A stretch of DNA of 64,000 nucleotides from Candidatus Oxydemutatoraceae bacterium (GCA_965211995.1 OZ243040.1:1555363-1619362); one strand, 5' to 3'; positions 9,397-58,537 are shown, counted from the first letter of the stretch. Translations and numbers: made by a program. The notes: generated from the letters alone by a model not told the origin.

Positions 9397-9692
9397 TATA
9401 GATAGTTGACCTGCGCTTACCCGCCGTCTCCCCTCGCGTTGCCACCCCGCGGTGGAGCCATGCCGTCAATAAACGGCGCGAAGACACGGGCACAACGGCT
9501 GCCGCAATCGCTTATCGGGAAATAGATACCGCTCGTTCCCCCAAGCGTCATAACCCGGTTGACATGGTGTAAATAGACATGCTTGTTCGCTCGGGGGGCG
9601 CTTGGCGCACCTCAACGTTTAACCGGATCCCGCCCCTGGCATTCGCAAAGATGTGGCGGTGGGAGCACGTTTTTGACCAATGGAGGTCAATT

Positions 9693-10388
9693 ATGGAGAA
9701 TATGACTCAAAGTCACCCAACTGCCGCCGCGCAGAGACTCAAATTGGAACAAGCCGACTTCACACCCAATCAGGCCGATGCCCTGACTCAAGCCATCGGA
9801 CGACTGGCCACCAAAGGCGAGTTGAACGAGGCGGTGTCGAACCTTGTCACCAAAGACGAGTTCAGGGAAGCCATATCGCACATGGTCACCAAGGATGAAT
9901 TCCTGGAAGCCATATCACACATGGTCACCAAGGATGAATTCCTGGAAGCCATATCGCGCATGGTCACCAAGGATGAATTCTTGGAAGCCATATCGAATAT
10001 GGTCACCAAGGAAGAACTCGCAAGAGTCGAGGCCAGGCTGGACCATATGGCAACCAAGGAAGACCTCGCAAGAGTCGAGGCCAGGCTGGACAACACAGCA
10101 ACCAAGGAAGACCTCGCAAGAGTCGAAGCCAGGCTGGACAACACAGCAACCAAGGAAGACCTCGCAAGAGTCGAGGCCAGGCTGGACAACACAGCAACCA
10201 AGGAAGACCTCCTGAAAATCCAACTGGCAACCAAGGAAGAACTCCTGAAAGTCCAAGTCGATCTGATGAAGTATTTGGACAAGAAGATCTTCCATTTGCT
10301 CATCATGGTGCCGGTGCTCGTGGTCGCCGTGACCGGCGCGATGCTCGCCTTTGCACCGCCGCTGCTCAAACTGCTGTGGGGCGGCTGA
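9693..10388 (+). CDS. coiled-coil repeat protein with C-terminal TM anchor, tentatively DUF1640/CCDC90-like
   Basis: GGAGG 7 nt upstream of the ATG; four 13-aa repeats 'VTKDEFLEAISHM' and four 16-aa repeats 'ATKEDLARVEARLDNT', then hydrophobic tail 'IFHLLIMVPVLVVAVTGAMLAF'. Confidence 0.5.
   Translation: MENMTQSHPTAAAQRLKLEQADFTPNQADALTQAIGRLATKGELNEAVSNLVTKDEFREAISHMVTKDEFLEAISHMVTKDEFLEAISRMVTKDEFLEAISNMVTKEELARVEARLDHMATKEDLARVEARLDNTATKEDLARVEARLDNTATKEDLARVEARLDNTATKEDLLKIQLATKEELLKVQVDLMKYLDKKIFHLLIMVPVLVVAVTGAMLAFAPPLLKLLWGG
9846..10200 (+). repeat. in-frame tandem repeats inside the CDS: 4 x 39 bp followed by 4 x 48 bp
   Basis: 'gtcaccaaggatgaattcctggaagccatatc.cacatg' x4, then 'gcaaccaaggaagacctcgcaagagtcgaggccaggctggacaacaca' x4, near-perfect copies. 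Confidence 0.9.
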
Positions 10389-12330: not shown

Positions 12331-12566
12331 CGGGGAATCGCCCTTGTGCGCCGCCTGAAAAAGCCGCCTGGATTGATCGGACGCAGGGCAATTATAGGGA
12401 AGTTAGGCAGTTTAGGGTTTTTTGATAACTTGGCTAACTTCGGTATAAACCGGCTGTTGTGGACTCCATCAGAAACCCGTATGCGCCCGGAGCAGGGGTT
12501 GCTCCCCCGGAATTGGCTGGTCGCCGGGAAATCCTTGAAGCGATGCGAATTGCATTGGAGCGGGTT

Positions 12567-13529
12567 TTACTTCTTTGTTTCATAATTCTCTAAAACTAGT
12601 TGAGCAAAGTGCTCTCCATCAATAAGCACAATATTTTTCCCGGTCGAGTCGTAATAATCGTCAGCTTTTTTTATGGCTTCTTCTGAAATTTTCCCTGACG
12701 TAATTACCATTCCAAGTTGGGTGTCTTCGTGTTTCATGCCTCGAATTAACTGCTCTACAACTTCTGCGCCGGCTGGTGAATCAGGTTGCCAATACTTTGC
12801 TTGAACGGCGACCTTCTGCTCAAACATACCTGCAACCGTAAAGTCTGCAATCACATCAGCCCCTTTATCTTTGCAGCGGGCCACGACCTTAGATTCCTCG
12901 GCTCCCATATTTAGCAGCACCCTTTCAATAAGGCGCTCAAATTCATCAGGATTCATTCTGCCTGTTCTAATCTCTTCAAGCGTTTGCGAAATTAACTTTT
13001 GCTTAAGGTCACTTTCAAATGTGGGCTCATCTCCGGTCTTGGCAATGTTTAAGCAATCCTTAATTTGATCAATTAAGCGAGTGGCATCCGCACTGGTGCC
13101 TCGTATTTTCATCCGTGCAACCAGTGCAGATTTAGCGAATTTTCTTTCGATCGGCTTCTTTTCATTTAGCCACTTTACCGGTCTGCGGTAAGCCGAATCA
13201 TCATCTTTCTTTTCAGGCAAGTATGTTGCCGAACCTATGACTTCAGCGACATAAAACTTTGACCCGCTATGAGGAACGACGACTAAATCCCCTACACCCA
13301 TGTCACGTATAAAGCGCCACATATGTCCAGCTGCGCTGCCTGCTTTTCGAAAATCTGGGTCATCTGGATGATATTTTTTATGGATGATCTCTCTAAACTC
13401 CATCCATTTTAGACCCTTATCTAAGAGCCCTTCCGCATCAGCCCAACCGATAATTAATTGGTTTGATTCAAGCGCTTCTTGAACGCAATCTTTCCCGCTT
13501 GGAGATATTCTAAGAATGAATGCTTTCAT
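12567..13529 (-). CDS. Mrr-type PD-(D/E)xK restriction endonuclease with an N-terminal PUA/EVE-like domain (putative modification-dependent nuclease)
   Basis: Low-GC gene. C-terminal 'GADVIADF...FEQKVAVQAKYW' is the Mrr_cat D-(E/Q)xK motif; the N-terminal ~150 aa are beta-rich with 'GDLVVVPHSGSKFYVAEVIG', resembling a PUA-like reader fold. Confidence 0.6.
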   Translation of the reverse strand: MKAFILRISPSGKDCVQEALESNQLIIGWADAEGLLDKGLKWMEFREIIHKKYHPDDPDFRKAGSAAGHMWRFIRDMGVGDLVVVPHSGSKFYVAEVIGSATYLPEKKDDDSAYRRPVKWLNEKKPIERKFAKSALVARMKIRGTSADATRLIDQIKDCLNIAKTGDEPTFESDLKQKLISQTLEEIRTGRMNPDEFERLIERVLLNMGAEESKVVARCKDKGADVIADFTVAGMFEQKVAVQAKYWQPDSPAGAEVVEQLIRGMKHEDTQLGMVITSGKISEEAIKKADDYYDSTGKNIVLIDGEHFAQLVLENYETKK

Positions 13530-13556
13530 TTTCCAAGTCCCTTGGTTAAGTTGAAT

Positions 13557-14426
13557 TCAGGCGAATAGCTTTTTCAGCCATGTAAAAACGCCGGGATAAT
13601 GTTGCAAATCCAGCACGAACTCCTGACCGATTTTTGCAGAGTCCAGAAGCGTAAATTTATTGCCTTTGACTTTCTTCCAGTTCGTCATTCTTTTGTTATA
13701 ACTTAAAGCAAGTTCCTCGCTTTTTGGATAAAAACAGATCGGCAGTTCCCAAACTGATTTGTTGTTTTGGGTCATATCAGTCAGAATCTGTATCGGCTTA
13801 ACCTTATTAAAAACACCATAGCCCGCTTGATTGGAATTGATTTTAGAGGGTAAGGCTCGACTGCCCACATAAACGGTGTTTTTCTTGTTGTCTATGCCGC
13901 ACAAATGGGGATGATGTTTGAGCCATGGATATTTTTTAAGAACGTCTTTCTCTTTGCCATATATCGGGATTACTTCTTCAACGAACAGCCATCCGTATAT
14001 TGCGTGCATATTTATCGAATCCCGCTTGAACTTCCAAGTTCCCCCGTGTTTCTCTATTTCTCTGAACCAGCCGAAGTAAATAAACAGATCCCCCACCCCG
14101 ACACCGGCATTTTCCAAATGCCCTTGGGCGGCACCCACTTGTCCGAATGCCCCTTTCCAACCTTTCGGTCTATTCGCAAGGAGTCGCCGGTCTATGTCGG
14201 GATCGAGATGAACATATTTCGAAACCCCAGATTTCTTCTTTCCTGTCAGGCTTTGAACAATATCAACTATGTCATAACCTTTTACATTCAGATCATTTAA
14301 TCTCGTCGGTGAACGTGAGGCTGGAATCGGCAGAGAAACCATTCCCCCATCTGGAAGTATCGGACTTGGTATTCCCCCATTGGAAGAATCGAATCCTTTT
14401 CTGCTTAGAATGATTTTCATCTGCAC
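13557..14426 (-). CDS. hypothetical protein (289 aa) encoded immediately upstream of the Mrr-like nuclease; no recognisable family
   Basis: Low-GC ORF, co-directional with the nuclease gene 27 bp downstream; N-terminus 'MKIILSRKGFDSSNGGIPSPILPDGGMVSLPIP'; a second PUA-like-looking segment 'GDLFIYFGWF...HAIYGWLFVEEV'. Confidence 0.5.
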   Translation of the reverse strand: MQMKIILSRKGFDSSNGGIPSPILPDGGMVSLPIPASRSPTRLNDLNVKGYDIVDIVQSLTGKKKSGVSKYVHLDPDIDRRLLANRPKGWKGAFGQVGAAQGHLENAGVGVGDLFIYFGWFREIEKHGGTWKFKRDSINMHAIYGWLFVEEVIPIYGKEKDVLKKYPWLKHHPHLCGIDNKKNTVYVGSRALPSKINSNQAGYGVFNKVKPIQILTDMTQNNKSVWELPICFYPKSEELALSYNKRMTNWKKVKGNKFTLLDSAKIGQEFVLDLQHYPGVFTWLKKLFA

Positions 14427-14632
14427 TTGCCGAGCGTTTTACACTTTATGCGCGTCCCTTTAGAGGGCTGGCATCTTTCAGATGGTTTTAGACGCTCACC
14501 TCTTCTACATCTGCTGCAAACTTTAGAGGGGGGCATTTTTTAGCCCGTTTTAGAATTTCTAAAACTTCTTCATAAACCTTCTTACGTTCAGGTTGTCGTT
14601 CAAGTTGTGAGGAGGATATCTTTATACGCCGT

Positions 14633-15742
14633 TTGCCATTTCCTCCGTACATATACTCATGTAGTTTTGGGGCGATTTTTTTAACAAAATCTCCTTTCTC
14701 TACCGTTCGCTGCCTCAGAACCTTGTGCCACCTGCCGAAACATCCGAACGGCATCGCGGTCAGGGAGTTGCGCCGGAGATTGCGCAACGACAGATTCGAG
14801 ATCAGCATCCGCACCCTGCAACGCGACCTGCGCGATTTGTCCGTCGCTTTTCCCATCACCGCCGAGGAGCAGGGGCGCCGCCTGGTTTGGTGCTGGTCTC
14901 GCGACGCCACGCTTTTTTCGATCCCGTCCATGGACGCCTACACCGCGCTGACTTTTATGCTGGCCGAGTCACATCTGGCCGAGTTGTTTCCCGCAAGCAT
15001 CGGCTCGGGCCTTAAGCCGTACTTCGATGCGGCGCGGAAGGTTCTGAAGAAAAGCGGGAGAGGCCATCTGAGCGAGTGGAAAAGGAAAGTCAGAGTTATT
15101 CCGCGCAGCCAGTCGCTGATGCCGGCACGCATACGCCCGCGGGTGAACCACGCGGTACACGACGCGCTGCTGCGGGACAAGCGGCTGCACGTCCGGTACC
15201 GGGCACGCGACGCATCGCAGGACGACGAGTGGGAAATCAACCCTCTTGCGCTCGTGCATCGCCACGGGGTGAGTTACCTGGTTTGCACTTCAGAAAAAGA
15301 TCGCAACGTCAGGCAACTGGCATTGCACCGTTTTCGCACAGCCAGGGTGCTGGACAAAGCGATTGTAAAACCGATCGGAGTTGATCTGAGCGAGTTTTGG
15401 CAATCAAAGCCGTTCGATTATCCCACCGGCGGCAAAATTGATTTGGACGTGTTGTTTGACGCCGGGGTTGCGAAACACTTGCGGGAAACCCCGCTCGGCC
15501 CGGCAGCCGCCAGCCGCCAGCCGGTTGCGAAACACTTGCGGGAAACCCCGCTCGGCCCGGGGCAGAGTTTGTGCAAGCATCCCGGCGGACGAACGAGATT
15601 AAGGATCAATATCGAAAGCACTTCTCAACTGCGCTGGTGGTTGTTGGGTTTCGGCAATTACGCCGAGGTCGTCGGCCCCAGGGAACTGAGAGCCGAGTTC
15701 ACGCGGATAGCACGGGGCCTCGGCGAGATGTATTCGCTGTAA
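14633..15742 (+). CDS. WYL-domain transcriptional regulator (HTH-WYL-WCX, BrxR/CapW-like)
   Basis: HTH 'GIAVRELRRRLRNDRFEISIRTLQRDLRDL'; WYL core 'LHVRYRARDASQDDEWEINPLALVHRHGVSYLVCTSEKDRNVRQLALHRF'; divergent from the minus-strand operon; start uncertain (an alternative TTG further downstream is possible); internal 57-bp in-frame duplication at 15467-15580. Confidence 0.7.
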   Translation: MPFPPYIYSCSFGAIFLTKSPFSTVRCLRTLCHLPKHPNGIAVRELRRRLRNDRFEISIRTLQRDLRDLSVAFPITAEEQGRRLVWCWSRDATLFSIPSMDAYTALTFMLAESHLAELFPASIGSGLKPYFDAARKVLKKSGRGHLSEWKRKVRVIPRSQSLMPARIRPRVNHAVHDALLRDKRLHVRYRARDASQDDEWEINPLALVHRHGVSYLVCTSEKDRNVRQLALHRFRTARVLDKAIVKPIGVDLSEFWQSKPFDYPTGGKIDLDVLFDAGVAKHLRETPLGPAAASRQPVAKHLRETPLGPGQSLCKHPGGRTRLRINIESTSQLRWWLLGFGNYAEVVGPRELRAEFTRIARGLGEMYSL

Positions 15743-15753
15743 GCAAGGTGCTC

Positions 15754-18501
15754 TCACCCCGTCCAGCCAAGTCCCGCCGCCACGCAGTTAATTGACAACA
15801 GCAGCGCGACCAGTTTTTCCTGATGGCTGCTCTCATCGGTCACGTCCATGCCGCGCAACTCGGAGATCAAGCGCACCTGTTCAAACCCGGCTTGATCCAC
15901 CATCGGCAGGCGTCTTTCGAGGCGGCGCCCGAAGCGCGGGAATCTCTCGCACAGGTGTTTTTTGCCGGTAATGCTGAGCAGCATTTCCGCGCTCAGGCGG
16001 TACTCGTCCTTGATCAGGCCGAAGATCTTGTCGCGCACGCCGGTGTCGGGCACCATCTCCGCGTAAGCGGCGGCGATATCAAGATTGACCTGCGGCAGGT
16101 TCTTTTCGACTTCGTTGGCGATCAGGCGAAACAAAGGGCAGTCCCGCAGCATCGTGCGCAGCAACGCAAGCGCGCCTTCATGTTCCGACACCAAGGTCCG
16201 CACCGCGGAACCGAAGCCGAACCAGCCGGGCACCATCATTCGGTTCTGCGACCACGCGAACACCCAGGGGATCGCGCGCAGGTCGTCGAGCGTGCCGGCG
16301 CCAAAGCGCTGTGCCGGGCGCGACCCGATCTTCAGCAGCGCCAACTCCCCGACCGGACTCGCCGCCTGATAGAACATAAGCAGTCCTTTCTGATCAGCCA
16401 ATCGGCGGTAGGCCGCGAACGAAGCGGCGGACAAGGTTTCCATCGCCGCATCGAATTCGCTGTTGCGCGTCAGCCGCCGGTCAACGCCGGACAGCAGGCT
16501 GTGTTCAAGCGCCGACGCGCACAGCATTTCCAGTTGATGCTCGGCGGTGCCCAGGTTCGCGAACTTTGCAGACACCACTTCGCCCTGTTCGGTCACCCGC
16601 ATTCTGCCGTTGACCGTGAACGGCGGCTGCGCGGCAATTGCGTCCTCGATCGGGGCGCCGCCGCGGCTGCTCGAACCGCCGCGCCCGTGGAAAAAAGACA
16701 CCGCGACGCCGTGCTCACGGCCGACGGCGTGCAGCCGTTGCTGCGCCTTGCCGGTCTCCCAGTTCGAGCAGACGAAGCCGCCGTCCTTGTTGGAGTCCGA
16801 ATACCCGACCATGATCTCCTGCACGCCGCCGAGCGAGTCAAGCGTGCGGCGCACGGCGTCCGCCGTCAGGATTTCCGCAAGAATGTCCGGCCCCTTGCGC
16901 AGATCGTTGATGGTTTCGAGCAGCGGCACCACCGCGATGCGGCACGCGCCGGCGTTGAATAATCCGGCGAACTTCGCGAGCAGATAGACGTTCAAAACGT
17001 CCGCGCCTGAGCGCGTCATGCTCAGGATGAAACTGTTGAACGCGGATTTGTCGAGACGGCCACCGACTTCGGCGACGAGACGGAAGATCTTGAAAGTCTC
17101 GACGGTTTGCCCGGACAATTCAGTGTCCGGAGGCAGGCGCGGGCAGGGCGCGTCGAGCAGTTCCGCCACCCATTTCAGATAGTCGCCGCCGGCTTGCGGC
17201 GGGCGCAGTTCCGCCTTGGCCAAAATCTCCGTCAGGGCCTGATTGATGCGGGTCGAGTTTTCCCTGAGGTCGAGGCTTGCCGTTCTGAAACCGAAGGTCC
17301 GGGCGATGCGGATCAGGCGCAAGACGTAACGGCGGGCGAGGCCGTCGGCGGCCGCGTCGTTCAGACAGCGATACATGATTTCGAGGTCGTCCAGCAATGC
17401 TTCGGCGTCGCGGTAGCCACCGTCGCTTGCGGCGGCGGTGTTTTTGATTTTGGTGATAACGCAGCGCGCGTATTGGCGGAACAACTCTCCGGGGTTGCGC
17501 TTTTCCGTCGCGTCGCGTTCTCCGGAGGCGTCGAGCAACTCGTTCAGGCGCCGCCGAAAATAGCCGGGGACATTGATCGCATGAGCGGCAATGCTCAAAT
17601 GCCTGAGCAGCCCCCTCATTTCCGTTTCCAGGTTGGCGAGGCTGGTCGCACGGTACGTGAACAAAGCCTTGCGCGTGACGTCCGCGGTCACGAACGGGTT
17701 GCCGTCGCGGTCGCCGCCGATCCACGAACCGAAACGCAGCAGCGCCGCGGTTGTCGCGGGCGCCGCCTCGGGGTAATGGGCGGCGAGAGCATCGCAGAGT
17801 TGCTCGTGCACGGTGTTGACCGCTTCAAAGATGGATTCGTGAAAAAAATGGCAGCCCCACGCGATCTCGTCTTCGACCGACGGCTTCTCCAAGCGGATTT
17901 CCCCGGTCATCCACAGCAGGTCTATCTCGTCGCGCAGGCGCAGGATCAATTCGTTGCGCTCCCGCGGCGTCCAGCGCGCGAGTTCGAGTTCTTTCAGCCG
18001 CAGGTAGATGCGCCGGTGTATCTGCAAAACGGTGATGCGCTTGGCTTCGGTCGGATGCGCGGTGATGACCGGCTGTATCAGCGTATCGTTGAGCAGCGCT
18101 TGCACGGTGTCGGCGGTGAGTTCTTTTTCGCGCGCGGCGGCGAACAAACTCATGAACGTGCCATCGTTGCAATCGGCGCCGAGCGAAGTTTCAATCTCGC
18201 GGCGGCGGCGCACGGTCGCGTTCTGCTCGAGGATGTTCAGCAACTGAAACCAGATCCCGCGTGCCTGCAGCGTGTGCAGCAGGTCGAGGTCGCTGCGCGC
18301 GCGCATTTGCCTGCCGGTAAACAACTCTTCTATATGCGGCCGCCGGCGGCGGATAACGTCGAGCAGCAGTTCGTGAAACAGTTGCAGCGTGCGTTCAGCG
18401 TAGGCGATTGAACGCCGGCTGATCTCGGCACGGTCGCGCCCGCGGCGGGGTGCAACCGGTTCGAGGTAGCCGGGATGGTCGCAACGGCGGGTGGCTGTCA
18501 T
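15754..18501 (-). CDS. ppc: phosphoenolpyruvate carboxylase
   Basis: 'VITAHPTEAKR' PEPC signature, ~915 aa; alternative start at 18528 ('MSLRLSLKF'). Confidence 0.9.
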   Translation of the reverse strand: MTATRRCDHPGYLEPVAPRRGRDRAEISRRSIAYAERTLQLFHELLLDVIRRRRPHIEELFTGRQMRARSDLDLLHTLQARGIWFQLLNILEQNATVRRRREIETSLGADCNDGTFMSLFAAAREKELTADTVQALLNDTLIQPVITAHPTEAKRITVLQIHRRIYLRLKELELARWTPRERNELILRLRDEIDLLWMTGEIRLEKPSVEDEIAWGCHFFHESIFEAVNTVHEQLCDALAAHYPEAAPATTAALLRFGSWIGGDRDGNPFVTADVTRKALFTYRATSLANLETEMRGLLRHLSIAAHAINVPGYFRRRLNELLDASGERDATEKRNPGELFRQYARCVITKIKNTAAASDGGYRDAEALLDDLEIMYRCLNDAAADGLARRYVLRLIRIARTFGFRTASLDLRENSTRINQALTEILAKAELRPPQAGGDYLKWVAELLDAPCPRLPPDTELSGQTVETFKIFRLVAEVGGRLDKSAFNSFILSMTRSGADVLNVYLLAKFAGLFNAGACRIAVVPLLETINDLRKGPDILAEILTADAVRRTLDSLGGVQEIMVGYSDSNKDGGFVCSNWETGKAQQRLHAVGREHGVAVSFFHGRGGSSSRGGAPIEDAIAAQPPFTVNGRMRVTEQGEVVSAKFANLGTAEHQLEMLCASALEHSLLSGVDRRLTRNSEFDAAMETLSAASFAAYRRLADQKGLLMFYQAASPVGELALLKIGSRPAQRFGAGTLDDLRAIPWVFAWSQNRMMVPGWFGFGSAVRTLVSEHEGALALLRTMLRDCPLFRLIANEVEKNLPQVNLDIAAAYAEMVPDTGVRDKIFGLIKDEYRLSAEMLLSITGKKHLCERFPRFGRRLERRLPMVDQAGFEQVRLISELRGMDVTDESSHQEKLVALLLSINCVAAGLGWTG

Positions 18502-18610
18502 GAACTTGAGGCTCAACCGCAAAGACAAACCCGCCGACGCCGCGGATTCCCGACGACGACACGGGCGGGAATGACGACGCGGATGCCTGCGCGAAAGTCA
18601 AAAGACGTCA

Positions 18611-18832
18611 TCACTGCGCCCCTTCGCTCGACGTCTGCGGAGGCAACAGCAGGCGGATGATATCGAGCAGCAGTGCGTGAAACAGTTGCAGCGTGCGTTC
18701 AGCGCAGGCGATTGAACGCCGGCTGATCCCGGCACGGTCGCGCCCGCGGCGGGGTGCAACCGGTTCGAGGTAGCCGGGATGGTCGCAGCGGCGGGTGGCT
18801 GTCATGAACTGGGGACTCAATTGCAAAGACAA
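18611..18832 (-). pseudogene. truncated ppc N-terminal copy (repeat unit 2)
   Basis: Encodes 'MSLQLSPQFMTATRRCDHPGYLEPVAPRRGRDRAGISRRSIACAERTLQLFHALLLD', then runs out of frame. Confidence 0.6.
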
Positions 18833-18917
18833 ACCCGCCGACGCCGCGGATTCCCGACGACGACGGCACGGGTGGGAATGACGACGCGGACGCCTGCGCG
18901 AAAGTCAAAAGACATTA

Positions 18918-19139
18918 TCACTGCGTTCCTTTGACCGCCATCTGCGGAGGCAACAGCAGGCGGATGACATCGAGCAGCAGTGCGTGAAACAGTTGCAGCG
19001 TGCGTTCAGCACAGGCGATTGAACGCCGGCTGATCCCGGCACGGTCGCGCCCGCGGCGGGGTGCAACCGGTTCGAGGTAGCCGGGATGGTCGCAGCGGCG
19101 GGTGGCTGTCATGAACTGGGGACTCCATTGCAAAGACAA
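18918..19139 (-). pseudogene. truncated ppc N-terminal copy (repeat unit 3)
   Basis: Encodes 'MSLQWSPQFMTATRRCDHPGYLEPVAPRRGRDRAGISRRSIACAERTLQLFHALLLD', then diverges. Confidence 0.6.
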
Positions 19140-19321
19140 ACCCGCCGACGCCGCGGATTCCCGACGACGACGATGCGGGCGGGAATGACGCCACGAACGC
19201 CTGCGCGAAAGTCAAAAGACATCATCACTGCGCCCCTTTGCTCGACGTCTGCGGGCACAACAGGCGTTGCATTTCGGATTTGAATTCGCCGGATGGGCGA
19301 AGCAGAGCGGTCGCGGCTTCC

Positions 19322-25455: not shown

Positions 25456-25587
25456 GAGACTCCTGGTATGGACAGTGGACAGCCACTCTTGGATAAGCGA
25501 CCTGGACAATTCCGCCGCCAATTCTATCTGATGACGTGCGCTTGGGGGGTATTGATGCGGATGGACAACTGAGAACATACATACCTC

Positions 25588-26253
25588 CTACCGTCGGCGT
25601 ATGTAATAACCGCTATCACTGTCAAGGGGAATTTCATCCCCTTCCTGAGCATGATCGCTTTCCAAGTGCTTCCATGAAAGCCACAAGACCATAACAGTGG
25701 CCACTAGTATAGATCCTACTATCCACCACCTGTATGGGACACATCCAGGGTCAAAACACATCAGGCTGAAAACAAGCAACACCGACCAAATAACCGTGCT
25801 CAAAAGACTTACAGCAATACCAATTTTAGAAACAGAAAAGGGGGACGCTGAAAGAAGCGAATTTGATCCAGTATATTCGTGGATAGATGTCTTATATAAT
25901 TTGCCTGTAATTTCATCCTCTAAAAAGTCAATATTTTTCTCCCAAATCTCTTGCCAATACCGACTACCCTTATTAGCCAACCACCACCAAAAAGAAAGGA
26001 TCAGTCCAACAGAACTCAGAGCAACAGAGGCTACCCATAGGACCAAACCGTTTTGAGACTTTACCAAACCAGCATAAGCGACAAACGCAAGTGCAATAAA
26101 AACCCAAAAATAAGCCGACCTTTTCCAAAAAAGATCTATTTCAAACCGACGTATTTCATGTGCGTATTTAAGTGCTCTTGCCTGCATACGCTCTCTCTGG
26201 GGGTTATCCCCAAAAGCCTCGCGCAGGTACTTTTGTCTGGCAGTTTCATTCAT
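25588..26253 (-). CDS. hypothetical 4-TM membrane protein, coupled to the res gene
   Basis: 221 aa, two hydrophobic helix pairs; starts 15 bp after the res stop; low GC. Confidence 0.5.
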   Translation of the reverse strand: MNETARQKYLREAFGDNPQRERMQARALKYAHEIRRFEIDLFWKRSAYFWVFIALAFVAYAGLVKSQNGLVLWVASVALSSVGLILSFWWWLANKGSRYWQEIWEKNIDFLEDEITGKLYKTSIHEYTGSNSLLSASPFSVSKIGIAVSLLSTVIWSVLLVFSLMCFDPGCVPYRWWIVGSILVATVMVLWLSWKHLESDHAQEGDEIPLDSDSGYYIRRR

Positions 26254-26268
26254 GCGGTAAAGACCCGG

Positions 26269-28950
26269 TTATTTATAATTGGTGAAACCCTCCACCAACT
26301 CTTTAAATGATTGTGGATTATATTCGTAGAACCCTTTCTCATCCACATAAACAAAGTCATAAATAACTTCTGATTGTATTCGATTAATATCTTCACACCA
26401 TTGTTTCAACCTTTTCATTTTCAAATCCACGTCCATATCTTTTAGCCCTTTAGTTTCCACAATAAAAATCTCAGAGGGGGATTTTTTGACCAGGAAATCA
26501 GGGTAATAATTAGAAATATTCCCGTCGGCGTTCACGTAATCTATCTTGAAATGGGAAGTGGCATTTTTTGCATAGGAAATAATGTCCGCACATTCCTCTA
26601 AAAACCCCGCAAACTTCAACTCAAGGTGGCTATCCCCCACAATCTTATTGAAAACACTCTTTTTAGGAATCAAATACTCTTGCTGCTTAACGACACAGGG
26701 GCGTGTTTTACGCAACTTGATCGCATCCCGTATTTCCGCATTGCCCCGGTCTTGCACCGTTAATTCGTTGATCCTTTTTTTGAAAGTATCAATTAATGTC
26801 TTGCAGGCAACCAGTTCCGACAGATTACGCAAAGTGTTGGGATTCTCCAATTCGATTTCCTTGCCAAATAAATGAAACCTTATAAACTCTTTTACTTTTC
26901 CATAAAGCACATCATACCCGCTGAATAAACGCAGATCTTTCATGATTGTCTTTGTAAAATACCCAATGACACTGCTGTAATTAGGGACACCGGAAATATC
27001 CAGTTTCGTGATATGTGTAATTTCTCCTGTTGTGATGTCTTTAAAAACAATTTCCCGCTGCTGTTCCTTTACAAACTGACGATAAGGCGCTTTCTCACAA
27101 CCAAAAGTGCCAACATCAAGATCGTCAAGGTTCTTATACTCACGATAGATTCTAGCGGTCAGAACCGGGATCTCGATATCCAGTGCATCCATATCTTTGT
27201 TTTTGTTGTCATGGTCAATTTCAATAATGAGCGGCGTTTTTGCACTAGTGCCCTCTCCCATCGCTGCGCGTTCCAGTTCAACCCCCTCAGTTTGAATGGA
27301 CTCCACAAATTCCATAAAGGCGTCAGTCCCAACCACACTGACTTGTTCTTCCGCATCCTCATCCGGATACATCCTGCGCAAACCGCGGCCTAAGGTTTGT
27401 TCCGGCAAAATGTTGCTCTGAGCGGTATATGGCCTCAAGCCCACAATCGTCGTCACATTACGTACATCCCAACCTTCCTTAAGCACCAGCACTGAAACAA
27501 TAGCCTTATACGAGTTATCTGCACTATCAATAGCATTCGCTTGCTTTCTCAACTTTTCCAATTCGTCTTTGTTTCTACTGCTGTCTGCCTCAGAAATCTC
27601 CCCATTCTTTTTAGTGTGAATAACCAGTACGGCATCTTTCAGATCAGGGTAGGTGCTTTCTAGATATTCGGCAACGCTATCGCAATTCTTTGTGTCATCC
27701 GTCATTACAAACAAAATCGCTTTTTTATCTAGTTTCTTGTGTTCCTCATAAGTTTTTCTCCATTCAACCACCCCCAGATGCAAATAATCAGAATACTTTT
27801 CAGTATATTTAATGCTTTGCTTCTCTCTGAGTTTAGCCCTGCTGGCAGAATCGGGAAGCACGGGATGTTTAACCACATTTTGAGAAATTGCTTCGACCAA
27901 CGGGTAGTCTGAAACAGTTTGCACGAAAATCGCCCCATTATTGTGCTTGGGTGTCGCGGTGGTATCTACCTGCAAAGATAACTCGCTGCCTTTCTGCAGC
28001 AAATGATTGTGAATGTCTTCAATGCACTTAAACCAAGCGAGACTACTATCGTGTATGTGATGCGCCTCATCGTTCAAAACCACTAACTCATCTATGTCAC
28101 GAACGATAACCCCTAAATCTATCTTGGAATCCGTAGTCGCACCTGTCGGTTTTTTGCCTAGAAAATAGCCCCTCGTATCGTCATCGTCAGCCGATGGAAG
28201 AGCATCGTCGCCGGCATATATGCGATGGATATTAGTCAGAAAGACATTGCCAGCAGGACGAGTAACACGCACTTCATCCTGTATGTGCACGGTCAAGTTA
28301 AAGTCATCGTTCCAATTCCGGCCGCCCACTCCATCATCAGGCAATATCGGATCTTCCCTGAAAATTTTCGAGTCTACAAAATCCTTACGCAGTCTGTCCA
28401 AAACTATAATGTTGGGAGCAATCACAAGAAAGTTGCGGGCAAGTTCTGATTCATCCTCGTAAATCTTATGGAAATAACTCCAAGCCAAGACCAGGCTCAT
28501 AACTTTAGTTTTTCCCGTTCCTGTCGCCATCTTGACGACAAAGCGTTTCCAACTCTCATCGAACATGTTTGCGGAAACAGCGCCGGATTTGTCAAATCGA
28601 AGCATGTCGTACTTGTCTTTTATACGTGCCACGTCGTATAAATAAATGATCGTCTCAATGGCTTCCCTCTGGGCAAAGTAATACTGGAACTCCGTTGCCG
28701 TTCCATCATTTGTATTAGAAATTAAGTGCGGGGTGTTGAACCACCAATTCAAAAGGCTGCGGCTTGTCTCAGTAGCCCCCTTGTACCCGCTATCACGCCA
28801 CTTCTTAACTTGTCTCCTTAACTCCGGGACCAGCGGTGGCAACAACTTCTCAAAACTCGTCTCGCGTAACGTTTCATCTGCCGGGAGCCAGCGAACATCA
28901 GGCTCCAAAATTGCATGAGGAGAATCTGGAAAATCAGGATGGAGTGCCAT
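26269..28950 (-). CDS. res: type III restriction enzyme Res subunit (SF2 helicase plus C-terminal PD-(D/E)xK nuclease)
   Basis: Walker A 'ATGTGKT', 'LNDEAHH' DEAH box, C-terminal 'YYPDFLV...IVETKG' nuclease motif; 893 aa; low GC. Confidence 0.85.
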   Translation of the reverse strand: MALHPDFPDSPHAILEPDVRWLPADETLRETSFEKLLPPLVPELRRQVKKWRDSGYKGATETSRSLLNWWFNTPHLISNTNDGTATEFQYYFAQREAIETIIYLYDVARIKDKYDMLRFDKSGAVSANMFDESWKRFVVKMATGTGKTKVMSLVLAWSYFHKIYEDESELARNFLVIAPNIIVLDRLRKDFVDSKIFREDPILPDDGVGGRNWNDDFNLTVHIQDEVRVTRPAGNVFLTNIHRIYAGDDALPSADDDDTRGYFLGKKPTGATTDSKIDLGVIVRDIDELVVLNDEAHHIHDSSLAWFKCIEDIHNHLLQKGSELSLQVDTTATPKHNNGAIFVQTVSDYPLVEAISQNVVKHPVLPDSASRAKLREKQSIKYTEKYSDYLHLGVVEWRKTYEEHKKLDKKAILFVMTDDTKNCDSVAEYLESTYPDLKDAVLVIHTKKNGEISEADSSRNKDELEKLRKQANAIDSADNSYKAIVSVLVLKEGWDVRNVTTIVGLRPYTAQSNILPEQTLGRGLRRMYPDEDAEEQVSVVGTDAFMEFVESIQTEGVELERAAMGEGTSAKTPLIIEIDHDNKNKDMDALDIEIPVLTARIYREYKNLDDLDVGTFGCEKAPYRQFVKEQQREIVFKDITTGEITHITKLDISGVPNYSSVIGYFTKTIMKDLRLFSGYDVLYGKVKEFIRFHLFGKEIELENPNTLRNLSELVACKTLIDTFKKRINELTVQDRGNAEIRDAIKLRKTRPCVVKQQEYLIPKKSVFNKIVGDSHLELKFAGFLEECADIISYAKNATSHFKIDYVNADGNISNYYPDFLVKKSPSEIFIVETKGLKDMDVDLKMKRLKQWCEDINRIQSEVIYDFVYVDEKGFYEYNPQSFKELVEGFTNYK

Positions 28951-28965
28951 AATTATTGGGGGAAT

Positions 28966-30240
28966 TTATTCTTTCGGGTTTGGGTCTTTTTTGTCCGCAG
29001 TACTATTTTCTGTGACGTTATCTATAGCGCTTTTCATAAAATCCACTTCATCATGCCTTTTTCTCAGTGGATCTTGAAGGATTTGATTCAAAATCCCGCG
29101 CACGTAGTAACTTTTGTCTTTTGATTCTATCTTTTCCATAAATGCCATTAATGATTTTGCCAGCACTGCTTTATAAGAGTAGTCTTCAGCCAAGTTTTTA
29201 TTTTTGACATATCTGCCCGCACAAAACCAAGCACCCGCTATTAACAAAGGAATTAGAGTCAGCCTAAGTGCGGCAGTTACTACATCTGCCCCATCATCCG
29301 TTAAAGATCCCAAGATATAGAAACCCAACCCAACTGAAAATAATGTAAAAAGTAAAGCACCCGATAACCAACCCACAAAATTATTCCACTTTCTAGCTTG
29401 ACTGTACTTTTCTTGGTAGGCCGCGCTGATTCCTGCAGCGGTCGTGTACTCAAGAGCTATCTTAGATTGCTTTATCAGTTGACTAGCCTCTTCAAGAAGT
29501 TCTTCCTGTTGTTGCTTATACTTTTCTGCCTCTTGCTCCTGAGATTCTAGTTGAGCCCGCTTTTCTTCAATTTGTTGGGAAAATTCTTCAATCACTTTGA
29601 AATGAGTTTTTGCAGAAGATAATAATTGACTTATGTCTTTATTACTATCAGAAGACCTCTCGTGAATACCCGTTAATTCATCAGATTTCTGATTGAGACC
29701 ATTAAGTTTTTCTGAAAAAGAGGCAAAATTCTCCTCCGCTTGTTGTATTTTACTCTGTGCCTGTTCGGCATTTTCTTGGATGCTTTTGACTTTCTTAATA
29801 TCTTCTTCAAGTGCAGAACTCTTTGAGTGTAATTCATTGAGACGTTCTTCAATAGCCTTTTGAGATTCTGATGATCCTCTGATTCTATAACTTCGAATGA
29901 TAATTTTTAATTCATCCAACTGGTTGGCAACATTTGGGTAGTTTTTTTGATTTAACAAATTATTTATCCTATTTAAGCAAATCTGTATGTTAAGTCTTTC
30001 CTGATAGACAGACAGTTGTATAAACTTGTTATGCGCTTTCGTGATACCTCTCAAGTCCGTAATAATAGCTTGCAGCCCCGCTTTAAGGGACTGTGGGGTG
30101 TATTCCCCTTCCTGCCCATAAACACTTTTCCCATGCTCTCTCGGAGCAAAAGTTGAGAGATGTTTTTCCAACATGTCTAATTGACCACGTACGTTTTTTA
30201 TTGATTCTGTTTCCATGATTTCACACTGTAATTTGCACAA
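28966..30240 (-). CDS. coiled-coil protein with two C-terminal TM helices, inserted between mod and res
   Basis: ~290 aa of heptad-rich Q/E/K/L sequence, then TM helices 'WLSGALLFTLFSVGLGFYILGSL' and 'LTLIPLLIAGAWFCAG'; its start overlaps the mod stop. Confidence 0.55.
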   Translation of the reverse strand: MCKLQCEIMETESIKNVRGQLDMLEKHLSTFAPREHGKSVYGQEGEYTPQSLKAGLQAIITDLRGITKAHNKFIQLSVYQERLNIQICLNRINNLLNQKNYPNVANQLDELKIIIRSYRIRGSSESQKAIEERLNELHSKSSALEEDIKKVKSIQENAEQAQSKIQQAEENFASFSEKLNGLNQKSDELTGIHERSSDSNKDISQLLSSAKTHFKVIEEFSQQIEEKRAQLESQEQEAEKYKQQQEELLEEASQLIKQSKIALEYTTAAGISAAYQEKYSQARKWNNFVGWLSGALLFTLFSVGLGFYILGSLTDDGADVVTAALRLTLIPLLIAGAWFCAGRYVKNKNLAEDYSYKAVLAKSLMAFMEKIESKDKSYYVRGILNQILQDPLRKRHDEVDFMKSAIDNVTENSTADKKDPNPKE

Positions 30241-32458
30241 TTTTCATAGTGTCATTGCCAAATATATCCACTACTTTAACGGCTATCTTCCGTCGCCCGG
30301 GTTTACATTCCTTAAATATACTAGTGAGTTCTAATGAGCGATCTTTCTTTGTCCGAAATGATTGCCACTCGTTTTCAAAGACATAGTCGCCGGTCCAACG
30401 CTCTTCCCACTTGTCAGTATCTTCATCTTTAACCCTAATAATCTCACGCTTACTCTCAAAATCAAAATCCACCGCCCAATAATCAATCCAATCCGCCCAT
30501 TCTTTGGTCAGCACTTCACGCTTGACGATGCCGTCTTTCGCCTTACTCACTTTAATAATCTGCCCTTGCTCCACCACGATTTTATTTTTCCCTTTCTTCA
30601 AACTAACTTCAACATTTGCAATAGAGTCCTGCGAATAGAAAACAGAAAAATCAGTCAACTCTATAGCGACACTTTTATCCTTAATGTGAGGTTTAATTTC
30701 AATATACGACACGTCGTGGAACACCACCTGATTTTTCTCCACCGCCCGCTTGTCAAAGACTTCGGCGGGGATGTATTTCATTTCCAGGTTGATGCCTTTG
30801 CCTTTTGCTTCGTCCATGATTTGCGGGAATAGGCCCATTTCAAACTCAAAGGCGAGGATGTCGGCGCGGGTGATGTGATTTTTGCGGCACTCCAGGATAA
30901 TTTCTTCCACGAACAGGCGCGTAACCGGCAGGTTGATGGGGCCGATGGCGACCATGCGTCCGGCTTTTTTGCCGTGGAACACGCCGGACTGTTCCACCGG
31001 TTGCGCGGCGTAGGCTTTGAGGATCAGGTCCTGGTATTCCTTTGATTTGGCGGCGATCTGCGCTTGCTGCTGTTCAGGTCGCAGGCCGGGATTGACGCCG
31101 ATGTAGTGCTGGCGTTCGTATTTTCCGAGGTTGAGGATTTCAAAGGCGCGGTAATTTTTGCTTTCCTTTTTGAGTGCGCGCTGTACGCCGATCATGCGCT
31201 TGCGGGTGGTGTGGATGGCGAACTTGCCGAGGTCGGAGGCGATCCATTTGCGGCTGAGTTTTTCGGCGACGGCGGCGGTGGTGCCGGAACCACAGAAGAA
31301 GTCGGCGACGAGGTCACCTTCGTTAGAGGAGGCTTTGATGATGCGTTCTAAAAGAGCTTCGGGTTTTTGGGTTGGGTATTTCAGGTATTCTCCGCCTTGT
31401 GTGGCTCTAATGTCCATCCAAACATCACGACAGCGAACTCCCTTACCCATATAAAGTTTTCGCCCTGGAACTTTCCCCTCCTCAATCAGCAACTCGCCAT
31501 TTTCAATCCACAGCAACGCAGTTTTTTTGGGCATCCCATAACCCCTTGATGGTACTTTCTCGCCATATCCTAAATCATAAACATAGCCGCCTCCGCCTGG
31601 GTTATCTACGGGGCCTACTCGATAGCGGCCTCTTTCATCGGAGTAGCGATAAAGACTTTCGCTGGCTTTGCTGTATTCCTGAAAAATGTCATTCCAGATC
31701 ACTTTTCTTTTTCCCTTACGATAAAAAAACAAAGTTTCGTGGGACTTTATAAATTTTTTGTTTTTTGCCGAACTATCCCCGATAGCTCCCTGCCAGATAG
31801 ATTCGTTCACGAAATTCTCTTTCCCAAACACCTCATCCAAAGCCAACCGCATAAAACCATTCACCCGCCAATCACAATGCACATAAATACTCCCATCCTC
31901 CGCCAGTAAATCCCGCATCAACACCAGCCGCTCATAAATCATCGCAATAAACGAATCCGCGCCCTTGCCCCAGGTGTCGCGGTAGGCCAGTTCCTCCAGC
32001 ACGTTCGGCTTTTTGGTGAAGGTGTCGCCGCCGATTTCAATATCCATGGAAAAATCCGCGCCCACGTCAAACGGCGGATCAATGTAAATCAGTTTCAACC
32101 CGCCCTGCGCTTCAATCTCCTCGCGCAACGGCCCGTTCTTGAGGCCGGACAGGATCAACTTGTTGTCGCCCCAGATCAGTTTGTTGCTCCAGCCCTTGAG
32201 TTGCCGCCCACGCGCATCGGTGGTGAACAGATCCGCCTGTAGCGATGTATCCTCCGACTTCTCCGCGCGCGGTTCGTCCACCTGCTCAATCACCTGAAAC
32301 GGCAGCACCACGTTGCACACCTCGCTGGTCTTGCCGTTCCACACCAGTTCCACTTCCCGCTTGTCGTCAAACAACAGGAAGCGGTACTTGTCGGGCAGCG
32401 GCTTGCCGGACTCAATGAGTTTGACGACGTCGCGCTTTTCGTTGTCGGAGAGGTTCAT
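30221..32458 (-). CDS. mod: type III restriction-modification Mod subunit (N6-adenine DNA methyltransferase, beta class)
   Basis: 'IYIDPPFDVG' (motif IV) lies N-terminal to 'FFCGSGTTAAVAEKL' (motif I); start 'MNLSDNEKRD'; long low-GC C-terminal extension. Confidence 0.85.
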   Translation of the reverse strand: MNLSDNEKRDVVKLIESGKPLPDKYRFLLFDDKREVELVWNGKTSEVCNVVLPFQVIEQVDEPRAEKSEDTSLQADLFTTDARGRQLKGWSNKLIWGDNKLILSGLKNGPLREEIEAQGGLKLIYIDPPFDVGADFSMDIEIGGDTFTKKPNVLEELAYRDTWGKGADSFIAMIYERLVLMRDLLAEDGSIYVHCDWRVNGFMRLALDEVFGKENFVNESIWQGAIGDSSAKNKKFIKSHETLFFYRKGKRKVIWNDIFQEYSKASESLYRYSDERGRYRVGPVDNPGGGGYVYDLGYGEKVPSRGYGMPKKTALLWIENGELLIEEGKVPGRKLYMGKGVRCRDVWMDIRATQGGEYLKYPTQKPEALLERIIKASSNEGDLVADFFCGSGTTAAVAEKLSRKWIASDLGKFAIHTTRKRMIGVQRALKKESKNYRAFEILNLGKYERQHYIGVNPGLRPEQQQAQIAAKSKEYQDLILKAYAAQPVEQSGVFHGKKAGRMVAIGPINLPVTRLFVEEIILECRKNHITRADILAFEFEMGLFPQIMDEAKGKGINLEMKYIPAEVFDKRAVEKNQVVFHDVSYIEIKPHIKDKSVAIELTDFSVFYSQDSIANVEVSLKKGKNKIVVEQGQIIKVSKAKDGIVKREVLTKEWADWIDYWAVDFDFESKREIIRVKDEDTDKWEERWTGDYVFENEWQSFRTKKDRSLELTSIFKECKPGRRKIAVKVVDIFGNDTMKIVQITV

Positions 32459-33861
32459 GGGGAGAGGTCCGGTGCGGCGTGGCGGCCAGCAAGATAACAA
32501 TACACGCTGGCGGGAAAGTAGGCCATCTTTTGATTTTCCATGTCAACGTGCCCAAACTTGGTTCGTGTTGTGAAATAACAATCTTCCATCCCGGGATGTT
32601 TTTTGAAAAACGTCTGCAAAGACCCTCGCTTTTGCCGTTGTTCAATACCTCCGTCAGACCATTTAACTTCCAAACACCAGAAAGGATGCCCACGTTCGTC
32701 AAGGGCCACGATATCCACTTCGCCGCCTTGCCAGCGTGCGTAGTGAAATTCGTATTGGAAATGAAACAACTGAGCAAATACTGCGGTCTCTACCAATGCC
32801 CCGCTTGGTCCTTCATCCTCCGGCGGGCCAAAAAGGGCGTGGTGGATTGAGGGATTGGTGAGATACACCTTGAAGAAATTGGCGCGCTTGAACCGCCTGG
32901 CATTTTGGTCTATGCGGCGAACAGTTTTGATAAGAAATGCGGCCTCCAGATATTCCAGATAACGTTTGAGCGTGGGCTTGGACACACCGGATCTCTGCGA
33001 GAGTCCGTCCAGTGATACTTCCTGTGCGGTATTCCAGGCGAGAGCCACGAACAGAGAATTGAGTTCCTGGATGTCTTGTATGCCGTAGAGACTCGGCAGG
33101 TCGCGCAGCAACACCTTGTCAATGATGTCGCTACGGACATAACGACTCATGTCCTGCTGTATGGTTTCGGAAAAAATGATTTCCGGGTAGCCGCCGATTT
33201 TGATGTAACGGATGAAGTGATCGTTGAGTTCTTTGATATTAGCATCATTCCAATTCTCTGTCTCATCTTCCCGTGCAAACGGCACGTTGATTTCCTGTAA
33301 ATCCAGATACTCGTAGAAGGTCAGCGGCGGCAGGAAAAAATCGGTGAAGCGCCCGGCGCCGGATTCAATGCTCTTGAGTCGCAACGCCGCCGCCGCCGAA
33401 CCGGACACCACGCATTTTATGTTTGGATGCGAATCCACAAACACTTTCAGGTGGCGTTCCCAATCCCGCAGGTACTGGATTTCGTCGAGGAAGAGAAAAG
33501 CGGGCGTTGCTTTTTTTAATCCGCCGGCCTCGTGAACCCGGGCGGCAAGTTCTTCGATGGACAGATTGGAATAGAGGGGCTGGTCCAGCGACAGGTAGGC
33601 CACGGCCCGGGCGGGGGTGCCTTTGTCCAGAAGTTTCTGGATGATGTGTTGTAGCAACACAGTTTTGCCGACGCGGCGCGGCCCCATCAGCACCACGGCA
33701 CGGCGCACGTCTTCGGTTTCCACCAGTTCGGCAAAGGCCCGGATGCAGGCGCGGGGGCGCATTTTCCGATGCACTTCATCGGTCTGGTGCGATGCCGTGC
33801 TCCACCAGGGATTTTCAACGCGCATGCGCTCCAGGAGCTGCGCTTCGGGGATGGTGTCCAT
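32455..33861 (-). CDS. AAA-family ATPase with C-terminal DUF4143 (PD-(D/E)xK-like) domain
   Basis: Walker A 'GPRRVGKT', Walker B 'LFLDEIQ', C-terminal 'EVDIVALDERG...CLEVKW'; 4-bp overlap with the mod start. Confidence 0.8.
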   Translation of the reverse strand: MDTIPEAQLLERMRVENPWWSTASHQTDEVHRKMRPRACIRAFAELVETEDVRRAVVLMGPRRVGKTVLLQHIIQKLLDKGTPARAVAYLSLDQPLYSNLSIEELAARVHEAGGLKKATPAFLFLDEIQYLRDWERHLKVFVDSHPNIKCVVSGSAAAALRLKSIESGAGRFTDFFLPPLTFYEYLDLQEINVPFAREDETENWNDANIKELNDHFIRYIKIGGYPEIIFSETIQQDMSRYVRSDIIDKVLLRDLPSLYGIQDIQELNSLFVALAWNTAQEVSLDGLSQRSGVSKPTLKRYLEYLEAAFLIKTVRRIDQNARRFKRANFFKVYLTNPSIHHALFGPPEDEGPSGALVETAVFAQLFHFQYEFHYARWQGGEVDIVALDERGHPFWCLEVKWSDGGIEQRQKRGSLQTFFKKHPGMEDCYFTTRTKFGHVDMENQKMAYFPASVYCYLAGRHAAPDLSP

Positions 33862-34304
33862 TATGACTGTATTGTAGCGACGGCGAGGCCGAAATTCAAT
33901 ATAAGAGAAGTTGACTTATCTTATAGGGGTTTTCTGTCGTTTTAATTTATTAATCATAGATTTATATCCGTACGAAAATTGGGATGGCAGGAATCTGGAA
34001 ACATCCGGCGTTTTATCTCATGGATGCGGCTTTTGGGGTGCTTTGTCTCATATTTTCAGTTTTATGAGACAATTTAGGGGGTTTGTGTTATCTATGAGGC
34101 ATTAATCTAGGATTACGATCAACTCCGAAAAACAGCACAATGCCGTCCTGCCACCCCTTCCCGGCATTATTTTCTGAATAATTCCCCCTTTTCAAGGAGA
34201 TTCAGCAGTCGCGCCGCACTGGGACGCGGGACAACAGCCCTGTCCCGAAAATCAACGCCGGTGAACCACGGTTCGGAAAAAATGAAATTGGTAATCTGTG
34301 TGCT

Positions 34305-57842: not shown

Positions 57843-57844
57843 TC

Positions 57845-58537
57845 ATGGCAGTTATACTCCGTGAACAAGTCGCATTGAGGGGCAAAACGAGTGAAATTAA
57901 AACATTTCACCCTTCCGGGGCATTGTCCAAAACTGACCGGGAGCGTGCAGAAAATCTGGACGCTTTTCTTGAAAGGGAAATACCCAAAGTAGTCGAACGC
58001 ATCATAAATCAGGTGACTTTGGCCAAAAACGACACGTCTTTGTTTAGATGGTATCTCTTCGGGAAGGAATTGAGAAAAATTACCGACAATGAACTGGTTT
58101 TATCACTGGATGTGAAAAGTGGAATTATCTGGGAAGCCGTATGGCAACATTTGCCGAATTCTTTTAAACCGCATGGTACCAGAACGGAAAAGAATCTGTT
58201 TTCAAAAAAACGGGTCCAAGGTAGGGACCATCTCTCTATATGCTACACGCTAGGCCAGTACGACGAGAAAGATATCCTGTGGATTCGTCGCTGGGATGAT
58301 TGGTGTCAAATCTATTACAGAACGGGAATTCTTGAAGACAAACGAGTATTTGAATCCCTTAGGGAAGAAATCCAGAAACTGAACGAGTATCCGAAAAAGG
58401 ATATTTTCAGGGGAATTGTTTCTAATATTTCCCAATGCTTTCCGCAGAAGGCTGGCAAAAAAGTACACACCAGCGTTCTGGCCAAGACAGTGATTAGAAA
58501 GCGCGTTCACGATAGTGCAATGCAAGCCTATAAATAA
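57845..58537 (+). CDS. hypothetical protein (230 aa), translationally coupled to the GHKL ATPase gene
   Basis: ATG 3 nt after the upstream stop; low GC; no recognisable motif. Confidence 0.5.
   Translation: MAVILREQVALRGKTSEIKTFHPSGALSKTDRERAENLDAFLEREIPKVVERIINQVTLAKNDTSLFRWYLFGKELRKITDNELVLSLDVKSGIIWEAVWQHLPNSFKPHGTRTEKNLFSKKRVQGRDHLSICYTLGQYDEKDILWIRRWDDWCQIYYRTGILEDKRVFESLREEIQKLNEYPKKDIFRGIVSNISQCFPQKAGKKVHTSVLAKTVIRKRVHDSAMQAYK

Follow-up and report, generated by a model that had tools for sequence, protein, structure and literature searches.

Nmad3, the nucleotide modification associated domain 3 of Pfam, is a protein family for which, to our knowledge, no biochemical activity has been described in any member, and a literature search on it returned nothing relevant, the single return being an unrelated plant paper. 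A multi-gene defence system that has been validated by experiment contains Nmad2 but lacks Nmad3 (PMC13092281). The NMAD of the DefensePredictor study was considered as a possible Nmad3 and rejected, since that domain is Nmad2. Fusions of a PUA domain to a nuclease are established modification-dependent enzymes (PMC6765204), and the MspJI and AspBHI enzymes carry an N-terminal PUA-like reader followed by a C-terminal PD-(D/E)xK-type nuclease. Regulators with the wHTH-WYL-WCX architecture control defence systems and sense single-stranded DNA (PMC9122601, PMC11662680).

The locus described here lies within a window of 64 kb, the whole stretch of DNA that was analysed. It comprises an islet of low GC content, carrying a Nmad3-family gene between the remnant of a second gene, which belongs to a family that we call X, and a nuclease gene, and a divergent regulator gene at the edge of the islet.

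12400..14700, no strand: low-GC islet of 2.3 kb, delimited by GC content and holding the X remnant, Nmad3 and the nuclease
12567..13529, minus strand: predicted type IV restriction endonuclease, DUF8426 (PF28530) plus Mrr_cat, assigned with Pfam, PADLOC and AF2/Foldseek
13557..14420, minus strand: Nmad3-family gene (PF18754), 287 aa with the likely ATG start at 14420
14491..14700, minus strand: X pseudogene remnant, the C-terminal third, assigned with BLASTP and the X profile
14633..15742, plus strand, divergent: wHTH-WYL-WCX transcription factor of the BrxR/CapW type, assigned with Pfam and PADLOC

The best overall explanation of this arrangement, to which we give a probability of roughly 0.6, is that an intact Nmad3 gene resides in a scarred, imported cassette and that the nuclease is an independent neighbour.

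The Nmad3 reading frame of the original prediction is uninterrupted over 13557..14426, on the minus strand, with 289 codons from a GTG at 14426. Every aligned homolog opens with MKIILSRKGFDS, and thus translation probably begins at the ATG at 14420, giving a protein of 287 residues. The protein had been called an orphan, which is contradicted by a full-length match to the Pfam Nmad3 profile (positions 1–247 of 247, 234.2 bits, E-value of 2.4e-69), far above the gathering threshold of 27, and by thousands of relatives. These number 4,127 among clusters at 90% identity, the nearest sharing 61% identity with the window protein, and 2,909 among representatives at 50% identity (1,317 with an E-value of 1e-30 or lower), and NCBI labels relatives as "Nmad3 family putative nucleotide modification protein". 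The window ORF is therefore a genuine, intact Nmad3-family gene, and a profile search of the 64-kb window found this single copy. Matches to Nmad3 numbered zero in 50,697 phage records and six in plasmid or chromid records, and no model in PADLOC-DB v2, NCBIfam or PHROG matches the family. The public protein collection includes the exact nuclease protein of this genome (P0121, encoded on a 1.94-Mb contig) and lacks the exact Nmad3 sequence, from either start codon. In the source record the Nmad3 gene may be uncalled or flagged as a pseudogene.

An alignment of 41 Nmad3 sequences contains about 45 invariant columns, mostly polar, and the window protein retains all 45. The invariant positions include Ser8, Arg9, Lys10, Asp13, His73, Asp75, Gln96, His103, Asp113, His141, His172-Pro-His174, Asn183, Tyr186, Gln268 and Glu269, and the motifs SRKGFD..GG.PSP, H.DP, GQ..H, GD, HPH, N..Y and GQEF are all present in the window protein. 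The N-terminus, which had been singled out as distinctive before the family was recognised, proves to be the most conserved part of Nmad3, with Ser8, Arg9, Lys10, Gly11, Asp13, Gly17, Ser21 and Pro22 invariant in the 41 sequences. The reported lack of Walker, HNH, PD-(D/E)xK, methyltransferase and helicase motifs was borne out by a Pfam search, which gave none of these at an E-value of 1 or lower. So many invariant positions, most of them polar, are more in keeping with a catalyst than with a passive reader, and suggest on sequence grounds that Nmad3 is an enzyme, whose conserved site, rich in His, Asp, Glu and Lys, would act on nucleic acid or nucleotides.

We used AF2 to predict the structure of Nmad3 from the 41-sequence alignment, which gave a confident model (pLDDT of 94.1, pTM of 0.92). 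Sequence searches of solved structures, with the single sequence and with a profile, found nothing meaningful, and Foldseek found no significant neighbour of the model in the PDB or BFVD. The best sub-threshold PDB matches were the ATP-sulfurylase N-domain (E-value of 0.029) and the Thermococcus McrB-N m5C reader (E-value of 0.037), accompanied by sub-threshold matches to ASCH, TRIP4, PH1033 (EVE) and PH0355, and the weak BFVD matches were to ASCH proteins. Thus, the PUA-like superfamily (ASCH, EVE, YTH, SRA and the ATP-sulfurylase N-domain) provides nearly all of the top sub-threshold neighbours in two libraries, and the Nmad3 GD-hydrophobic strand motif lies where the original prediction had placed a PUA-like barrel. 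However, TM-scores against PUA-like targets do not exceed 0.36, even when normalised to small targets, a Pfam search gave no PUA, EVE or ASCH domain at an E-value of 1 or lower, and hhalign comparison with the alignment of DUF8426-Mrr proteins, whose N-domain is YTH-like by structure, returned a probability of 0.14%. Nmad3 is also twice as large as a PUA-like domain, with numerous additional polar residues that are invariant. The proposed comparison of both proteins with the PUA, EVE, ASCH, YTH and SRA folds was productive for the nuclease, which matches YTH domains, and stayed sub-threshold for Nmad3. A PUA-like fold for Nmad3 is weakly supported by these models; if it is correct, the enzyme may have at its core a PUA-like pseudobarrel in which a base or nucleotide is bound.

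We compared the neighbours of Nmad3, using local profiles, in 95 loci from genomes, metagenomes and plasmids, a sample that corresponds to about 80 non-redundant loci out of thousands. A small partner gene is found in 56 of the 95, namely Nmad2 (PF18753, confirmed with Pfam) in 49, the Nmad2-like family A6 in a further 4 and X in 3. In most cases the partner gene, which may lie on either side of Nmad3, is co-directional with it and overlaps or adjoins it, so that the two are translationally coupled. Single-protein fusions of Nmad2 with Nmad3 also occur, in either order (L023/L024, P0335, P0369, P0347 and P0351). The small partners are 150–250 residues long and interchangeable across the cassettes. 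Comparison of Nmad3, Nmad2, X and the DUF8426-Mrr protein by hhalign gave no sign of a relationship (X against Nmad2, probability of 0.8%, leaves that relationship unsupported), the sole exception being A6 with Nmad2 (probability of 84%, with overlapping matches). Nmad2, X and the Nmad2-Nmad3 fusion have no match in PADLOC. No recognised partner is present in the remaining 39 loci, mostly truncated contigs; about a dozen non-redundant loci, such as that of Cupriavidus necator, carry Nmad3 alone despite ample flanks. We propose that Nmad3 is the larger protein of a widespread cassette of two genes, that it normally acts in complex with its small partner, and that the cassette, which sequenced phages lack, moves horizontally among bacteria and archaea.

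Six Nmad3 proteins (P0425, P0442, P0453, P0459, P0463 and P0466) have unannotated C-terminal extensions of 150–220 residues. That of P0453 has unannotated stand-alone homologs of about 130 residues on plasmids and a motif like the PD-(D/E)xK core, and that of P0463 resembles a B3/EcoRII-N DNA-binding domain by eye only; we note both tails as leads.

Family X has 82 members of 150–200 residues, and no model in Pfam or PADLOC. Complete X proteins are about 170 residues long and carry the motifs LIYKRTHKGDP...CMGRVR...DAVIGIGG. In close relatives of the window Nmad3 the X gene precedes Nmad3, overlapping it by 4 bp in L010/L011 and L099, whose Nmad3 proteins are 53–55% identical to that of the window. 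For 10 of the 35 closest Nmad3 relatives, a contig of the same size also holds an X member, one such pair having adjacent NCBI locus tags. X is thus a frequent partner in the window protein's own Nmad3 subclade. X also occurs away from Nmad3, at 4001–5339 of L100, a Bacteroidota mobile element, beside an unannotated protein of 246 residues; elements of this type carry an integrase and a relaxase and were seen in hundreds of gut-type metagenome contigs. The 246-residue neighbour was considered as a candidate Nmad3 and rejected, as it is not Nmad3-like.

The window shares with the Nmad2-Nmad3 cassettes the large subunit and the mobile accessory-island lifestyle, and a WYL regulator occurs occasionally in those cassettes also. 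Unlike them, it lacks Nmad2, which was not found in any frame of the 64 kb (hmmsearch --max), and its Nmad3 belongs to the subclade that often has X instead. A profile of X from which the window sequence had been left out was searched against the six-frame ORFs of the window and gave a single match, the remnant upstream of Nmad3 (E-value of 6.6e-10). The remnant covers positions 91–146 of the 173 in the profile, and BLASTP aligned it to the X partner of L010 (41% identity, E-value of 6e-8) and to L091 (E-value of 4e-5). It lacks the N-terminal part, which bears nearly all of the conserved X motifs in the alignment. The X homology begins at ~14,700, at the very point where GC rises abruptly from about 0.41 to about 0.60, and no spacer separates the truncated X from the WYL coding region. 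We infer that the truncation is the scar of a rearrangement or deletion, which probably also took the cassette's own promoter. The cassette would then have been scarred after its arrival, X losing its N-terminal two-thirds and its stump coming to abut the WYL 5′ end. The window Nmad3, left without X, may work alone, as partner-less Nmad3 proteins elsewhere seem to, or may be decaying. An X remnant upstream of Nmad3 together with a type IV nuclease downstream is seen only in the window, relative to the other 95 Nmad3 loci.

The GC contents of the X remnant (0.414), Nmad3 (0.434) and the nuclease (0.432) match one another and contrast with those of the flanking host genes (0.63–0.65), with sharp transitions near 12,400–12,500 and 14,700. 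Given this match, the three were probably acquired together. We propose that the cassette and an autonomous MspJI-like type IV enzyme arrived on one 2.3-kb low-GC islet. Neither a tRNA nor convincing flanking direct repeats mark the islet borders, the islet DNA has no match among plasmids, and promoter and terminator scans of the islet stayed at chance level, the promoter consensus being crude and perhaps unsuited to this organism.

The divergent regulator matches WYL (E-value of 3e-13) and WCX (E-value of 3.7e-15) in Pfam and WYL in PADLOC (1.1e-28). It shares these two domains and a defence-gene neighbourhood with the BrxR/CapW regulators, whereas its GC content of 0.59–0.60 is host-like rather than islet-like. 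Its start is uncertain. Alignment with the WYL proteins of L016, L023, L015 and L001 places the native start near 14690–14700, and the sole in-frame start upstream of the first helix, a TTG at 14633, falls within the foreign islet. At its junction with the X remnant, the WYL gene seems to have had its native start and promoter replaced. The WYL-WCX protein also contains, relative to four homologs, an internal duplication of ~19 residues (VAKHLRETPLGP...VAKHLRETPLGP) at the start of WCX, encoded around 15,530–15,640. A further duplication affects the PEP carboxylase gene (15754–18528, minus strand), where a 307-bp unit is present 3.0 times with 92% matches at 18348–19254. The 5′ end of the gene and its upstream region are duplicated by this repeat, which yields three near-identical N-terminal ORF fragments.

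Besides the Nmad2 partners, the WYL+WCX regulator is the only recurrent neighbour family of Nmad3 (L016, L023/L024, L015 and L001). Some of the WYL-associated cassettes hold an additional gene between the WYL and Nmad genes, for an HD_4 (RelA/SpoT-type HD) protein in L015 (3658–4269) and for a ParE toxin in L016 (4226–4531). The other neighbours are scattered and include type I restriction, retron, viperin, Lit, AriA, mads and PDC candidates, transposases, and PIN, PhdYeFM, HepT/MNT, ParE and MazEF modules. These heterogeneous neighbourhoods fit residence in defence and mobilome islands, and a defence role for Nmad3 is at present an argument of guilt by association. The cassette might serve in inducible responses to conflict, in defence or in DNA damage, sometimes under WYL control.

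The nuclease is a protein of 320 residues, with Pfam matches to Mrr_cat (E-value of 1.7e-22) and, weakly, to EVE, an N-terminal DUF8426 (PF28530) in the precomputed Pfam annotation, and PADLOC matches to PDC-S02 (4e-30) and mREase_IV (1.5e-9). The prefix in PDC-S02 presumably denotes a single-gene candidate. A sequence search of solved structures with the nuclease profile gave nothing meaningful. Foldseek matched the AF2 model (pLDDT of 86.8) to MspJI (E-value of 8.7e-8), AspBHI (E-value of 2.7e-7), AF1548 and YTH (m6A reader) domains (probability of about 1.0). The catalytic residues of the D...QxK motif, Asp225, Gln243 and Lys245, are invariant in an alignment of relatives, which share 56–62% identity, are about 320 residues long and occur in bacteria and archaea. 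On the strength of the model, the protein is predicted to be a stand-alone, MspJI-like type IV (modification-dependent) restriction enzyme. It shares the reader-nuclease architecture of MspJI and AspBHI but belongs to a distinct sequence family (DUF8426 plus Mrr_cat; PDC-S02). Its relatives stand alone in all five independent contexts, with Nmad3, Nmad2 and X in none of them, and the nuclease is thus independent of Nmad3.

The window also contains a type III restriction-modification system, on the minus strand of a larger low-GC island (~25,500–33,900).

26269-28950, minus strand: type III Res, in the low-GC island at ~25,500–33,900
30221-32500, minus strand: type III Mod, PADLOC MTase_III at 6.6e-116

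Given the type III Mod, N6A or N4C methylation of the host DNA is probable, a modification with which the type IV enzyme must be compatible. The same island encodes an 8xMP membrane protein, a PDC-S01 AAA_14/DUF4143 ATPase and a coiled-coil-like protein of 424 residues with weak JetC/LmuB matches. A third low-GC island (55833–58537, plus strand) encodes proteins of 669 and 230 residues with no Pfam match and a marginal PADLOC match to PDC-M33A. A 269-residue ORF at 9579–10388 (plus strand) contains in-frame tandem repeats of 39 bp (4.4 copies) and 48 bp (4.3 copies), encoding VTKDEFLEAISHM and ATKEDLARVEARLDNT, and ends in a hydrophobic tail.

The alternatives to an independent nuclease beside a scarred cassette concern how the islet genes work, and with whom. 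The original prediction had partnered Nmad3 with the nuclease, and locally the adjacency stands: Nmad3 lies 27 bp upstream of the nuclease gene, co-directional with it, and the gap contains no terminator-like site. From this spacing and the identical GC content, the two genes are probably co-transcribed in the window. However, the partnership is not conserved. A homolog of the window's EVE/Mrr-type nuclease is adjacent to Nmad3 in 0 of 95 loci, the single Mrr-type gene among them (L077) being 3.7 kb away on the other strand; the nuclease is missing downstream of all six close Nmad3 relatives (53–57% identity) that have a downstream flank; and Nmad3 is missing from all five nuclease-side contexts. 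Co-occurrence with Mrr-like genes in other genomes, on which the prediction had been staked, was thus absent from the loci compared. A functional pair, with Nmad3 as a second modified-base reader or sensor subunit, as a writer that marks invading DNA, or as an eraser that protects host DNA from the nuclease, would account for the close, co-directional spacing and sit well with the weak PUA-like matches of Nmad3, yet the profile comparison of Nmad3 with the nuclease's reader domain was negative. Other nucleases do adjoin Nmad3: in L023 an HNH_2 nuclease gene comes after a Nmad2-Nmad3 fusion and before a WYL gene, and in L095, a Bacillus toyonensis plasmid, an HNH protein that matches PADLOC mREase_IV lies 500 bp upstream. 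Such cases are rare and belong to unrelated families, as clustering in defence islands predicts, and we read them as such clustering. The tail fused to Nmad3 in P0453 has a motif that recalls the Mrr catalytic core, but the likeness is without statistical support (hhalign probability of 0.25%) and the plasmid homologs of the tail are unannotated. We therefore regard a functional pair as very doubtful, and the suggested role of Nmad3 as a second reader or a sensor or specificity subunit of the nuclease gives way to Nmad2, A6 and X as its real partners. A longer shot still is that Nmad3 is a nucleic-acid-modifying or de-modifying enzyme wired to modification-dependent nucleases, the window holding a "mark-and-cut" or self-protection pair; if this were true, the HNH type IV and HNH_2 neighbours, and P0453 as a possible fusion, would be further instances. 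Instead, Nmad3 and the nuclease in the window would be defence-island genes, independent of each other, that lie side by side in this particular lineage.

Two further readings concern the cassette itself. It could be a toxin-antitoxin-like or abortive-infection pair, in which one protein is toxic to nucleic-acid metabolism and is neutralised by the other, the window gene being harmless through the retained C-terminal stump of X or through loss of the promoter. The overlapping two-gene layout with variable gene order, the frequent setting among PIN, PhdYeFM, HepT/MNT, ParE and MazEF modules and transposases, and the adjoining WYL regulators, which gate costly defence systems (PMC9122588), are in keeping with such a pair. 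However, fusion of Nmad2 and Nmad3 in both orders is unusual for one, each protein far exceeds the classical type II components in size and neither matches a toxin or antitoxin family in Pfam. The dozen or so well-flanked, non-redundant loci without a recognisable partner, Cupriavidus necator among them, also indicate that Nmad3 alone is not lethal, and we hold this reading to be quite improbable. The window gene could alternatively be a non-functional relic that, after the deletion of most of X and of the native promoter region, is unexpressed or useless and not yet disabled by mutation. This would agree with an X remnant stripped of all conserved N-terminal motifs, an X stump that runs without a spacer into the WYL coding region, the absence of a promoter-like match upstream of Nmad3, and a Nmad3 protein missing from the public collection that holds the nuclease of the same genome. 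Against it, the ORF is intact with 45 of 45 invariant positions kept, partner-less Nmad3 genes persist in other genomes, and the consensus promoter scan, a crude one, may be ill-suited to this organism. Decay of this kind is unlikely, and an intact Nmad3 gene in a scarred, imported cassette beside an independent nuclease remains our preferred explanation.

As far as the window goes, these results chiefly correct the earlier reading: the protein is a member of a catalogued family, and its apparent operon partnership with the nuclease is not conserved. Nmad3 itself is abundant and horizontally mobile, with an enzyme-like conserved site and a confidently predicted fold for which the libraries searched offer no significant match. 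Thus, the intact cassettes, rather than the damaged copy in the window, may reasonably be considered candidates for a defence or nucleic-acid-modification system that is still uncharacterised.
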